Below, one piece after another: positions 50,955 through 57,286 of a DNA stretch of 64,000 nt. The notes under the pieces were generated by a model that saw only the letters and a list, made by a program, of their open reading frames with translations, was not told where the DNA came from and ran no database searches. Numbering within the stretch: the first letter of the stretch is position 1; every line of letters begins with the position of its first letter. The position numbers were made by a program, and so were the translations under genes. The stretch is from Eledone cirrhosa (Eukaryota), in the NCBI GenBank assembly GCA_964016885.1, contig OZ024742.1, positions 19,778,001-19,842,000 on the forward strand, in the 5' to 3' direction.

Positions 50955-51897
50955 ACAAACATAAATTATCGAGATTCGCATTTCGGCCCACGAAATAACG
51001 AAAAACAACCTCCGAGATGTGAGGCAAGTGCTCAATGATTCAGATGAACCAGAGCTATAACAAACGTTAAAGGCCAAACATACTGAGACGATGGTCAAAC
51101 AATCATTCGCATAGCCCCCCAAAAACGATCAAGTAATTCGGGTATTGAAAATTTACCCGGACCCCTGGAAGGTTGGTAAAATCCAGTATATGGGTTTCTG
51201 CGGCTCCTATATCAAGTACCGTCCGCTTACATAAATAATTGTTTCTACTTTAGGCACAAGGCCAGCAATTACTCAGTACATTACTGGTACTTTATTTTAT
51301 CGACCCCGTAAGGATGAAAGGCAAAGTTAACCTCGGCGGGATTTGAACTCAGACTGTAAAGGGACGTAACTATGCTAGAAAGCATGGCGTCCGACCCTCT
51401 ACCCATACTGCCAATTCACCGCCTTACATAAATAATGTCAGGCTTCTGGTAAGATGATTGAACAAGGAAGCCACTTTCTCATCAGGTTCAATGTTAATAC
51501 AAGGACTGACTATTGCTGACCCCACGTGGGGATCGGCAAGGGAGGCAACCCCTATATCAGGCGAATGAATTCAGTTGTGTATATTTTTGCAAGAATGCAA
51601 AAACATCACAAATCGAATAGAGTTCTCAACAGAAGGGTTAAAATTAACATAAGCTATTCATCAGTCAATAGAATCAACTAAAAAATCAAGAAAATTAACT
51701 GGTCAATAGCTAGAGTCTGGAGAATAATACAAACATAAATTATTGAGATTCGCATTTCGGCCCACGAAATAACGAAAAACAACCTCCGAGATGTGCGGTA
51801 AGTGCTCAATGATTCAGATGAACCAGAGCTATAACAAACGTTAAAGGCCAAACACACTGAGACGATGGTTAAACAATCATTCGCATAGCCCAAAAAA
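50955..51897. mobile_element. Non-coding element with ~165-bp direct terminal repeats in (TA)n (unit ~577 nt without the SINE)
   Basis: 50955-51118 is nearly identical to 51729-51891. There is no TG..CA and no credible ORF. Confidence 0.85.
51236..51423 (-). mobile_element. Type 1 SINE nested in the direct-repeat element
   Basis: TSD TTACATAAATAAT at 51227 and 51424. Confidence 0.93.
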
Positions 51898-52032
51898 GTA
51901 TATATATATATTTGAGGGCGGCCAACCGGACTGGCATATGCTAATTTTTTTACCGCCTTCTCGTCTTGGGCATCTCTCTGCCTTTTCAACCCATCGGATT
52001 GTGTCTATTATATTCCTTTGTTAAATTTCGGA

Positions 52033-52090
52033 ATACCTGATGATGTCACCGAATTCATACTGAAGCCGGTCACTGAAATGTTCATAGTAT
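52033..52090 (+). ncRNA. Type I hammerhead ribozyme (family H5)
   Basis: ATAC-CTGATGA-tgtcACCG...CGGTcact-GAAA-TGTTCA-TA-GTAT, in a ~225-bp island (51912-52135) between TA tracts. Confidence 0.75.
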
Positions 52091-52684
52091 AATAAACCTT
52101 TAAGGAATTACACCAGTCCGGCTTCCTGTTATTTTATAATTATATATGTATATATAGAATATACGCGTACACATTTTATATATATATATATATATATATA
52201 TATATATATATATATATATATATATATATATATATATATATATATATAATGTGTACGCGTATATTCTATATTCTATTTGCAACCAATGATTCCGTGTCCT
52301 AACAAAGTAACATATCTCCAGACGAATGTCCATATATTTATATACACATTGCTCATGAAACCTTTGGTAGCAAACAGAATATATTGAGGACGAATAATAT
52401 ATTATTTCTGTTTATATAGAAAACCGTCTTTCTTCTTGTTGATATTTTCACTACATACACAGACACACATATGCACACACATGTACACAGACACACATAT
52501 ACACAAACACACATATACACATACATGTACACAGACACATATATACACACACATGTACACAAACACACATATACACAGACACACATGTACATAGACACAC
52601 ATGTGTAGGTGTATGTATATATACATGTATATATATATATGTGTATATATATACATGTGTGTATATATACATTACATATGTTAC

Positions 52685-53292
52685 ATGGTGGCTGTCAACT
52701 CGTTTTCGAGTACGGCCACTACTTTATATCCATGTAGGAGAACCCCTACCGATGGGCTGAACGAGTGTGACTCTTTAGTCCAGCTAGCGACTTGAAAACT
52801 CTGGTACAAACATGACACTTGTGACAATTACTGACATATAGTGCTGGGCCCATGGTACCATGTGACGACAAGTGCAGAGAGATCTCCAGATATAAAGCAA
52901 TGCCTGTGCCGTGAAGATTTTATAGTGAGCAAAGGCACTGCACAAAGCCAGTCCAACTCTCTTAACCAAGATGATATTTACCAAAAAGAAGAACAAGTCA
53001 ACATCATTGGATACCATCAGGGTTGCAGGTGTTATATCAGAGTTTTCCTTCTCCTAGAATTCTGCCTTGACAAAGGCTAAGGGGTCATCTCTCCTGGTGA
53101 TTTTGGATGGGCATTGACTCTTAAGAGCTCCTTTGCCCTTTAACAGGTTTTGCTTTTAGTCCTGCAGGATGTCCAAATTCACCCTCCTCACCAAGAAACC
53201 TTGGTGGGGTTGCCAGTTTAGTCGCCAATGACCCGACCATGAGACATGTTTTACTGAGATATATGTTACCAGTAGCACCAACTGGTGACCTG
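52685..53292 (-). mobile_element. Probable RTE-type retrotransposon 5' region
   Basis: GTTTTCCTTCTCCTAG...AAAGGCTAAG resembles the reverse complement of RTE/RTE-X 5' UTRs (from recall only). It sits between microsatellites. Confidence 0.4.
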
Positions 53293-53912: not shown

Positions 53913-54011
53913 ACAGCGATGTCCTTCACAATATTTCCAATATTGACTGCTGTTTATCTTCTACTGTCTTGTCTTATTTTAGTTTGGACTATTTTAGTCT
54001 GTCAACTTTAA

Positions 54012-55382
54012 TAGTGGTGGTGGTGGTGGTGGTGGTGGTGGTTGTGGTGGTGGTGGTTGTGGTGCTGGTAGTGGTGTTGGTGTTGGTGTTGGTGGTGGTG
54101 GTGGTGGTGGTGGAGGTGGTGGTGGTGGTGGTTGTGGTGCTGGTAGTGGTGTTGGTGTTGGTGTTGGTGGTGGTGGTGGTGGTGGTGGAGGTGGTGGTGG
54201 TGGTGGTTGTGGTGCTGGTAGTGGTGTTGGTGTTGGTGGTGGTGGTGGTGGTGGTGGTGGTGGTGGAGGTGGTGGTGGTGGTGGTGGTTGTGGTGCTGGT
54301 AGTGGTGTTGGTGTTGGTGTTGGTGGTGGTGGTGGTGGTGGTGGAGGTGGTGGTGGTGGTCGTCGTCGTGGTGGTGTTGGTGGTGTTGTTGTTATTGGTG
54401 GTGGTGGTGATGGTGTTGGTGTTGGTGGTGTTGGTGGTGGTAGTGGTGGTGGTGGTGGTGGTCGTCGTCGTGGTCGTCGTAGTGGTGGTGGTGGTCGTTG
54501 TCGTTGTCGTCGTAGTGGTAGTGGTGGTAATGGTGGTGGTGGTGGTGGTGTTAGTGGTGGTGGTGGTGATAGTGGTGGAGGTGGTAGTGATGGTGGTGGT
54601 GTTAGCGGTGGTTGTAGTGATGGAGGTAGTAGTGGTGGTGGTGGTAGTGGTGGTGGTGATAGTAGTTATTGTAGTGGTGGTGATGCTAGTGTGGTGGTAG
54701 TGTGGGGGTAGTGCTCGTGGTAGTGGTGGTGGTGGTGGTGGTGTTAGTGGTGGTGGTGGTGGTGTTAGCGGTGGTTGTGGTTGTAGTGATGCTGGTGGTG
54801 GTAGTAGTTGTGATAGTGGTAGTAGTTGTGGTAGTGGTGGTGTTAGTGGTGGTAGTAGGGGTGGTAATGTTGGTGGTGGTAGTGGAGGTTGCATGGTGGT
54901 GTTGATGGTAGTGGTGATGAAAGTGGTGGTGGTAGTGCTGATGATGATGGTGGTAGTGCTGATGGTGGTGGAGGTGTTCGCGGTGGTAGTAGTGGTGTTA
55001 GGGGTGGTGATGGTAATTGTGCTGGTGATGGTGTGGTGGTATTGGTGGAGGTAGTGGTGTTGGTGGTGGTGGTAGTGCTAGTGACGTTGGTGGTGGTGGT
55101 GATAATGCTGGTAGTAGTAGTAGTAGTAGTAGTAGTAGTAGTAGTAGTAGTAGTAGTAGTAGTAGTAGTAGTAGTAGTAGTAGTAGTAGTAGTAGTAGTA
55201 GTAGTAGTAGTAGTAGTAGTAATAGTAATAATAGTAGTAGTAGTAGTAGTAGTAGTAGTAGTAGTAGTAGTAGTAGTAGTAGTAATAATAGTAGTAGTAG
55301 TAGCAGCAACAGCAGCAGCAGTCGCAGCAGCAGCAGTAGTAGTAGTAGTAGTAGTAGTAGTAGTAGTAGTAGTAGTAGTAGT
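54012..55382. repeat. (GGT)n to (AGT)n array
   Basis: Seen directly. Confidence 0.95.
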
Positions 55383-56491
55383 GAGAGTGTTGTTGATGTT
55401 TTCCTTTTAGGTTTTCTTATCAGTGAGAGTTGACATTCACAACTACAACCTAAACACAACACACCATTACAGCCTGTTGTAGTGATACAGAGAGAGAGAG
55501 AGAGAGAGAGAGAGAGAGAGAGAGAGAGAGAGAGAGAGAGAGAGAGAGAGAGAGAGAGAGAGAGAGAGAGAGAGAGAGAAAGGGAGAGAGATATATAGAG
55601 ATGCGCAGAAAGACAGACACATACGTAGTAATACACACACACACATACATCTAACTTATCTCTCTCTCTATATATAATAATAGGTTGACGTACTAGCATG
55701 GGTTTCACTGCTAGGACCGGTTGTAAATGTAAAATTCCAGAGTAGACACATAGTTATTCACTTTAATATAATTGTTTCTACTGTTGGCACAAGGCCACCT
55801 ATTATCCAGTATATTACTGTTACTTTATTTTATCGACCCCGTAAATAATAATAACCAACCTACACAACAACCAGCCTACACCAATTACAAGTATGGGAAT
55901 AACTACGGACGTCATCTGGCTACAACCGTCGTATTACGTAGTTTCTACATAACAATCTATACACCTAGCTCCACTCCATCTTAGCTATACTACATACGTT
56001 TTAAACCTATAAATATATCATGTTATATTATACACACAATAATACAATAATACACCTTTCCGTGTTGTTTGAAACAAGATAGCGTAGGACAGAACAAAGG
56101 AGAGGCACAAAAACAAAGTAAAGAATCCCCAGTCACTGAAGAGGTCACAGAATGTGTGACGAAAGAACTTTGACAATATATAAACAACCATCTGGTTGTG
56201 GAACCAACCAACCAACCATCTGGTTGTGGAACCAACCAACCAACCAACCGGAAATTTATGAATTCCTAAATTTATAAATTTATTATAATAAATTGAAGTG
56301 AAAGCAACTGGTGCGTGTGTTTCTTATTGGCAACATGACCCTCCCAAAGTATAACAATATCGGTTTCAACACACGTTTTCAGATAAAGAATCTTGCTAAA
56401 CAAATTCAGAAACGACATATACATATATATATATATATATATATATATATATATATATATATATATATATATATATATATATATATATATA

Positions 56492-57286
56492 TAGTAGAAT
56501 AATCGAGTATCGAAAAATCGGCGCACGAGTTCACGATAAACAAAATTCGAAATGAGCGGCAGAGGGCTCAATAATTCAGATAAATCAGATCTATAACTAT
56601 CGTTAAAATACCGTCACACATAGAACAAGTCTATAATCAACCATACGACCGAAAAATTGCGATCTGGAAGATTCGGGACACTCAGATAAAATATCAATAA
56701 ATCAATAAATCAAATGAGTGTAAAAAGCATACCCGGACCCGCTAGAAAGATGGTAAATCTAGCTTCTTGGGTTTCTGTAAATCCTTAAACTGCCCTCTAT
56801 CAGCTCACATAAAAATATATAAGACTTCTAGGAGCCAGCGGACCGGAATTTACTTCCTCAACGAGCTTTTGTCCGAACGAATGAAAAGGCATAACCCAGG
56901 CTGAAAAAACGCACATGGAATACAGCAAGGGAGATAACCTCTATATCCGCAAAAAATATTCGGGAAAATGTGGAAATACACATATCGAATAAGAGTGCTC
57001 AATAGACATGTTAAAATAAACAGGAGCTATTCATCATTTAATAGAATCGACATAAAATGAACAATAAAATTAACTGGTCAATAGCTAGGTCTAGAGCTAA
57101 ATATAGTAGAATAATCGAGTATCGAAAAATCGGCGCACGAGTTCACGATAAACAAAATTCGAAATGAGCGGCAGAGGGCTCAATAATTCAGATAAATCAG
57201 AGCTATAACTATCGTTAAAATACCGTCACACATAGAACAAGTCTATAATCAACCATACGACCGAAAAATTGCGATCTGGAAGATTC
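56492..57286. mobile_element. Non-coding element with 183-bp direct terminal repeats (unit 612 nt)
   Basis: 56492-56674 matches 57104-57286 with about one mismatch. It is a diverged relative of 50955-51897. Confidence 0.88.

Follow-up and report, generated by a model that had tools for sequence, protein, structure and literature searches.

Repeat copies in the window

The window analysed here is a stretch of 64,000 nucleotides of the Eledone cirrhosa genome (G000:C3:19778001-19842000, within a 3.0-Gb assembly). It contains four copies of a non-coding repeat family inserted in (TA)n microsatellites, a family that probably spreads as a non-LTR (long terminal repeat) retrozyme by means of an enlarged type I hammerhead ribozyme and a reverse transcriptase (RT) that is likely to be Penelope-like. 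Copy A, of clade A, occupies 50957–51897 on the minus strand, which is taken as the RNA sense from folding z-scores and hammerhead polarity, and spans 1.29 units. Its unit heads, at 50957 and 51731, lie 774 nt apart, a spacing that includes a 197-nt insertion with a 13-nt duplication (51227–51436) in the helix II extension of the element; once this is removed the unit measures 577 nt. We take the insertion to be a SINE (short interspersed element), and many further copies of it are present within the window. Copy B, of clade B (56492–57286, minus strand), is a 612-nt unit plus 183 nt (1.30 units) with (TA)n at both sides. Its unit junction, TAAATA at 57098–57103, is micro-homologous to (TA)n and marks the fixed insertion start and putative priming site. 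Copy C, of clade C (18661–19310, minus strand), is a single unit of ~648 nt that terminates at the junction. Copy D (16558–16735, minus strand) comprises the first 178 nt of clade A and stops ~26 nt before the predicted cut, which falls at unit position 204.

An initial annotation of this DNA had described the units of copies A and B, the monomer C, the position of all four starts beside (TA)n and the lack of open reading frames (ORFs), and these descriptions hold; no ORF of at least 120 aa lies inside the window copies. The fourth copy exists as described in position, not as the repeat alone but as a truncated copy.

Clades A and B can be aligned over the full unit, and C is clearly similar to them in the last ~300 nt. 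Unit lengths are 573–599 nt in A (12 units), 605–613 nt in B (35 units) and 628–656 nt in C (27 units), with a GC content of 36–39%. A conserved hairpin, P1, adjoins the junction on the minus strand of all three clades (51652–51712 in copy A, just beyond the unit junction; 57025–57087 in copy B; 19238–19292 in clade C), with two compensatory changes between C and A/B (pairs 118-177 and 120-175). The possibility that the family is itself an autonomous Penelope-like element (PLE) was rejected, since the units hold no ORF and no coding ORF is continuous with them in the 20 single copies inspected. The unit head contains CpG-rich repeats, which suggest DNA iterons or a promoter.

A type I hammerhead fold on the minus strand

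The initial annotation reported no known ribozyme in these elements. However, the minus strand of every clade has a type I hammerhead fold, with a YUGANRA core, GAAA, a GUC cut site and three helices; base-pair probabilities mapped onto a cross-clade alignment include a covarying helix between YUGANRA and GAAAC. The parts follow one another as helix I, core, helix II, GAAA, helix III, GUC and the 3′ strand of helix I. The insertion in helix II is a branched domain of ~79 nt, helix III measures 32–33 nt (clade A, and clade B with its B-like relative E) or ~87 nt (C), and the whole hammerhead spans 135–190 nt.

Copy B has an intact fold at 56731–56866 (minus strand), in which the 5′ strand of helix I (56866–56862) and a U3-G8 core (56861–56855) are followed by the 79-nt helix II domain, an extra A at 56776, GAAA at 56775–56772, helix III and GUC at 56738–56736, so that the predicted cut falls between 56736 and 56735. 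The fold in copy C is likewise intact (18870–19062, minus strand), with a C3-G8 core at 19056–19050, GAAA at 18970–18967, a long helix III hairpin and GUC at 18878–18876. The hammerhead of copy A (51155–51491, minus strand; GUC 51162–51160, GAAA 51198–51195, core 51485–51479) is probably dead, as comparison with 27 other A copies shows a changed core position 3, a helix I without 6 nt and the SINE within helix II. Two words deserve mention. The word CUGAUGAGAAA in copy A was considered as a minimal hammerhead and rejected, being private to that copy, and the true core is the family motif at that place. The word CUGAAGA in clade C, initially set aside, is the core.

We examined core residues in 140 distinct copies, retrieved with a pattern that is anchored in the family and fixes U4, G5, A6, A9, GAAA and U16.1, positions that are therefore not independent counts in this census. 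Positions 3 and 8 are U-A, U-G or C-G in 139 of the 140 (U-A in 51/53 A copies; U-G or U-A in 59/59 B/E; C-G or U-G in 28/28 C). All four bases occur at N7, and H17 is C, giving the GUC triplet, in 136/140 copies. An extra A precedes GAAA in 11/11 copies of six clades, maybe as a bulge or an A.A/C.A mismatch, and no tertiary contact between loops I and II was identified. In the parts of the cited sources available to us, to which all comparisons with published work here refer, a U3-A8 pair and an extra base after A9, features that the family shares, are described for PLE hammerheads (PMC4209133); a mismatch at 10.1–11.1 is tolerated, and the variants given there do not include an extra A ahead of G12 (PMC3088659).

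In a sequence-only MAFFT alignment of 15 A/B/E/C copies, 94.7% of paired cells can pair. The value is 95.8% for 11 copies of six clades, three of them more distant clades met in flanks, likewise aligned by sequence only; here both sides differ in 8 of 15 pairs, and such changes occur in helices I, II and III. When partners are slid by 1–3 columns, only 19–42% of cells pair in the 11-copy set (19–47% over both sets). The structure itself was derived from some of the aligned copies, and related sequences can beat the tool's shuffles; the case for covariation thus rests on pair types and the slide control. Core columns are invariant at 13/14 positions versus 28/128 other ungapped columns. A relaxed hammerhead descriptor matches 6/6 units on the minus strand and 0/6 on the plus strand, with 1–12 matches per 1000 shuffles.

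The active fold lies 0.7–5.4 kcal/mol above the ensemble when isolated (8 copies) and 3.0–8.8 kcal/mol above it in the circle; an RNAalifold pairing that would sequester the core has one compensatory change and is a lead only. Circular folds give z-scores of −2.7 (A), −2.8 (B), −4.6 (C) and −2.8 (E) on the minus strand and −0.9, −1.5, −2.5 and −0.3, respectively, on the plus strand (12 shuffles each), and linear folds give −2.4, −3.9 and −7.8 on the minus strand and −1.8 on the plus strand for B. In target-primed reverse transcription, the fixed end of an insertion corresponds to the 3′ end of the template and the other end is truncated. The fixed end of the family would thus make the minus strand the RNA, in agreement with the folding z-scores. 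Taken together, these sequence comparisons make it highly likely that the minus strand carries a hammerhead fold under selection.

The short colinear blocks of the initial annotation are real and confined to one strand (a 16-nt block has 3455 genome matches versus 9 for the reversed control). The suggestion of an unrecognised ribozyme class is not supported: the blocks are pieces of a type I hammerhead that lies on the opposite strand and, though atypical, can be recognised as such, with GGACCC as its GUC cut site read in reverse. The proposed GNRA hairpin and GAATA...CTATTC pairing are absent from the pairs conserved across clades, and that block sits in another hairpin of the minus strand. 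Comparison with Rfam yields no ribozyme in the family elements: the 150 of 237 matches viewed from a whole-window scan are microsatellite noise, none of them in the elements, and three multi-unit loci give 1, 7 and 0 matches, all far below the gathering score. The helix II and III insertions, the C3-G8, U3-A8 or U3-G8 cores and the extra A would explain this miss.

Genome-wide insertions and tandem arrays

Copies of the family in TA microsatellites run into the thousands. Searches for exact heads flanked by (TA)n give 1588 in B, 381 in A and 602 in C, against none in reversed controls, and a head motif common to A, B and E occurs 5418 times; all of these counts are lower bounds. Three further, much more diverged clades were met by chance in flanks (L284:2447-2600, L038:960-1115, L305:1755-1910, L033:2499-2645, L047:625-770, L366:1780-1985), so that the radiation is older and larger than these counts suggest. 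Contigs of three other organisms (X5-X7) match most of the unit at 80–99%, which speaks to presence only.

Insertions begin in a single register beside (TA)n, at the TAAATA junction 204–244 nt downstream of the predicted cut, and their far ends fall anywhere; the shortest measure 25 nt and the longest are arrays of 18 full units, rather than the 1.0–1.3-mers of the initial annotation. Likewise, the 165- and 183-bp direct repeats described there have no fixed length and are a truncated second lap. Among 148 insertions surveyed, (TA)n follows within 6 nt of the far end in 106, and 41 are longer than one unit. Four clade E arrays comprise 16, 16, 13 and 18 full units of 615 nt in unrelated flanks, with a common start and differing ends. 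Across five long clade E arrays, 59 of 69 full units are identical; the clade E burst is thus very recent. Internal junctions are identical in 38/40 B and 27/28 E cases, with two or three subfamily forms in A and C, and array junctions are scar-free, with no variable TA and no added bases. Subfamily-type differences are rarer within arrays than between loci (B 0.16% versus 3.7%; C 1.2% versus 4.3%). The retrozyme-like reading of the initial annotation stands to the extent that its copies of more than unit length, a fixed start with a variable end, long scar-free arrays and a single haplotype per array are found genome-wide.

The E haplotype of the long arrays (L211-L218; G000:C1 at 13.09, 36.02, 36.13, 44.27 and 49.83 Mb) has C for A before helix II, where its short-array relatives have A, and C at N7. 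A weaker ribozyme in this haplotype might leave more uncut or circular template. At L333:600-830, an insertion that is barely more than the clade F ribozyme lies between two (TA)n runs, and a short piece in inverted orientation comes after it; no other PLE-like inversion was seen.

Insertion ends accumulate before the predicted cut

If a linear RNA were cut at GUC and copied from the junction, the fold predicts run-off after 204 nt (A), 244 nt (B) or 215 nt (C). We surveyed far ends in 50 A, 50 B and 48 C insertions by taking heads flanked by (TA)n as they come first along the genome, leaving out two duplicated loci and, in a second batch, skipping an earlier-fetched B head and A heads. The last 25 nt before the cut hold the ends of 32 of the 124 insertions that reach there (A 6/44, B 11/40, C 15/40), compared with 3/92 in the next bin and a pooled rate of 3.5% in the other bins (binomial p 5e-19). 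The bin was predicted from the fold, and the excess had already been seen in 20 earlier copies, some of which recur in the survey. A smaller excess lies near one full unit, with 6/47 ends in the last bin.

The peak bins of A and B each hold one TA-like word versus up to 5–9 in others, and in C a later bin with 14 such words has 2 ends; since richer bins show no excess, TA-like words fail to explain the pile-up. The strong helix III hairpin of C shows no such accumulation of ends either. Between these ends and the cut lie 4–23 nt, a gap consistent with trimming back to a TA-like word and also with stalling at helix I. On this evidence the ribozyme very probably cleaves in vivo.

A candidate partner enzyme

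Insertions of the family behave in the Penelope-like manner, with a fixed 3′ end, truncation at the 5′ end, partial tandems and a microsatellite as target, and retrozymes have been linked to PLEs (PMC7229834; 10.64898/2026.07.22.740005). The genome has an active PLE family of near-identical 775-aa copies, active PLEs that end at (TA)n are abundant, and a GIY-YIG match is present in the window. We consider it likely that the partner is a Penelope-like RT.

Several other elements were noted in the window and beyond. [quoted passage not shown] Its family is young, and many intact 775-aa ORFs of that family stand in 4.2-kb tandems and inverted pairs. The 3′ end of another PLE family lies at 56100–56365, with a short type I hammerhead (CUU triplet) and a (TA)n end directly beside copy B, and it also follows a GIY-YIG ORF in L187. 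Short perfect inverted-repeat inserts beside (TA)n (16350–16490, 18350–18510, 19410–19710 and 58000–58460), several with CUGAUGA-like words, are probably truncated, inverted PLE ends. Two copies of a two-ORF LINE (long interspersed element), presumably L1/Tx1-like, encode an endonuclease, an RT and zf-RVT (3342–8599, nearly intact, and 40671–45613), and 26225–32201 is a minisatellite, 6 kb long and built of 24/45-nt units, in which several strands have long open frames. Elsewhere, Helitron Rep domains recur every ~100–130 kb on one strand (G000:C20, 3.5–5.2 Mb; C27, 13.1–15.5 Mb), a spacing that suggests a large segmental tandem array. The 3′ ends of the octopus Naiad consensus sequences in PMC8557442 bear the authors' label ‘HHR_half_core’; by eye, both core halves and the helix I–III strands seem present there in permuted order.

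Proposed mechanism and alternatives

Our preferred explanation is that the hammerhead would cut minus-strand transcripts, which would then likely circularise, and that a borrowed RT, probably of Penelope-like kind, would likely copy them into (TA)n microsatellites. A nicked (TA)n end would pair with the TAAATA junction and prime cDNA. With cut linear RNA as template, the enzyme would run off after at most 204–244 nt, as could be the case for about a quarter of insertions; with a circle or an uncut precursor it would pass the cut and continue, yielding 1.x-mers and long arrays. In PMC7229834, re-entry of animal retrozymes is a model, which expects the enzyme of a PLE or LINE to copy a primed circle. 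That arrays arise from a circular template is the better-favoured possibility, by a modest degree: one haplotype per array argues against jumps between random RNAs and fits a single circular template. A homogeneous donor array read as linear RNA also fits the haplotype data.

A number of observations weigh against the retrozyme reading as a whole. In the star-like clade A, differences within arrays and between loci are nearly alike (0.8% and 1.3%), and 17 shared variants occur inside B arrays. Only 9 of the 148 insertions, and none of the window copies, are long enough for two whole ribozymes, so that the window copies would be unable to make a circle by themselves. The core may be less active than usual, given U3-G8 in 41/59 B/E copies and an extra nucleotide at both sides of G10.1-C11.1, and stalling could contribute to the pile-up, whose ends coincide with TA-like words and the foot of helix I. 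In a biased 1.2-Mb sample, with the Dong/R4 and Naiad loci of the genome outside it, no family profile match (E up to 1 or 10) was found at 30 active 775-aa PLE loci or 30 GIY-YIG loci, in nine 10-kb PLE stretches, 24 Helitron stretches or a 25-kb PLE array, nor at 30 loci of a second PLE group except for two ordinary family copies nearby; no PLE, Helitron or LINE fetched shows a sequence link to the unit. Published octopus Naiad 3′ ends (~250 nt each) are unlike the unit, with only scattered matches to five short motifs. The PLE hammerheads encountered in this genome belong to the short type. The inverted 5′ arms that typify PLEs, which are seen in the 775-aa family, occur in 0/148 unbiased insertions; among 120 earlier loci, two have an opposite-strand copy, both head-to-head.

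The strongest competitor accepts cleavage and dispenses with the covalent circle. Insertions would then copy linear read-through transcripts of arrays, variously cut, or the enzyme would re-enter the same molecule; long arrays would grow in place by unequal crossing-over. We judge this unlikely. The pile-up at the cut requires linear RNA only, the lesser excess at one full unit is also accommodated, and so are the few variants that are common to several loci yet differ within an array, one of which recurs in 5/13 units of array E4. However, linear copying with truncation can only make arrays shorter, whereas the four 13–18-unit E arrays share a start in different flanks and differ in their ends, and the constancy of junctions in B and E, free of variable TA or added bases, is likewise difficult to reconcile with such copying.

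Cleavage itself is denied by the idea that the hammerhead is kept as a structure for RT binding or stalling, with ends placed at the nearest TA-like word after a stall at helix I. B ends do cluster at −13 to −16, at the foot of an extended helix I and a TGTA word, the core has its extra A before GAAA, and only 1/9 predicted frog retrozymes cleaved (Li et al. 2026, 10.64898/2026.07.22.740005). Nonetheless, conservation over six clades is highest at the catalytic residues and the GUC triplet, and neither the much stronger helix III hairpin of clade C nor the bins richer in TA-like words show a pile-up, making this account very improbable. Still further from the data is the view of the family as a non-autonomous element that replicates by DNA rolling circle, as Helitrons or other HUH types do, from a fixed origin and with leaky termination; we attach next to no credence to it. 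A fixed start, a variable end, long identical arrays and the lack of inverted arms would also fit such an element, and Helitrons are abundant in this genome. Helitrons begin with 5′ TC, end with a 3′ hairpin and CTRR, and share their ends with a RepHel element; the family lacks TC...CTRR termini, its junctions being TAAATA/TAAATAC. The 24 Helitron-centred stretches without a profile match (L231-L240, L261-L274) count against it as well, and it leaves unexplained a conserved hammerhead on one strand, with G-U pairs, and ends tied to the cut.

Relation to known retrozymes and significance

By the testable defining features of its sequence, the family is of the non-LTR retrozyme type, except in size and ribozyme shape. 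Like animal non-LTR retrozymes (PMC7229834; 10.64898/2026.07.22.740005), it consists of AT-rich repeats that are non-coding, run head to tail and have a single type I hammerhead in each unit, with a GC content below 45% and no LTR of fixed length, the repeat length varying freely; PLEs are present in the same genome, and the model there is target-primed copying round a circle. In contrast, the unit of 573–656 nt exceeds the 150–450 nt of PMC7229834, though it falls within the 51–972 nt of 10.64898/2026.07.22.740005. The enlarged 135–190-nt hammerhead, with its branched helix II, long helix III and variant core, also sets the family apart, as do its strict restriction to (TA)n targets, a single fixed site of priming at a distance from the cut, and insertions mostly shorter than a unit. 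No pLTR homologue was found, whereas 24/57 Xenopus families match known transposable elements (10.64898/2026.07.22.740005).

Metazoan PLE hammerheads are minimal and work as dimers (PMC4209133), unlike the family ribozyme, whose helix III is stable, whose helix II includes a 79-nt domain and which has a second extra nucleotide ahead of G12. The 5′ truncation and the partial and multicopy head-to-tail insertions resemble those of Chlamys-type non-autonomous MRC1 and of Naiad/Neptune PLEs, and microsatellite targets are common to both ((TA)n for Naiads, with a bias also in Neptune); MRC1-type elements, however, share 3′ sequence with an autonomous family, a sharing not found here, and PLEs often have the inverted 5′ arm that is missing from the surveyed insertions (PMC8557442). 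Plant LTR retrozymes have a similar predicted circle size (600–1000 nt) and are hammerhead-processed, but differ in their type III ribozyme, fixed LTRs, PBS/PPT, 4-bp TSD and Gypsy partner (PMC4918200). No cephalopod retrozyme and no such hammerhead architecture was found in the literature searched, with Repbase/Dfam, subscription papers and preprint supplements outside the search.

A broader interpretation, which we put forward tentatively and rate below even chances, sees in the family an old radiation with at least six clades, made up of RNA circles of ~600 nt that cleave themselves, have a hammerhead of new architecture and possess a dedicated TA docking site within. The extra nucleotide before G12 and protein-binding or switch domains in helices II and III would belong to this same tentative picture. 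If it is true, the genomic copies record in vivo cutting and rolling-circle target-primed reverse transcription. Current descriptors would then be blind to enlarged hammerheads, and other ‘ribozyme-free’ tandem elements may hide them.

The DNA copies of the family show a fixed site of priming, a cut site apart from it and products of several laps, so that each step is testable, and this mapping rests on thousands of insertions that include a very young burst. The family ribozyme, as predicted, widens the range of natural hammerheads, and surveys that use short-helix descriptors would undercount such elements.

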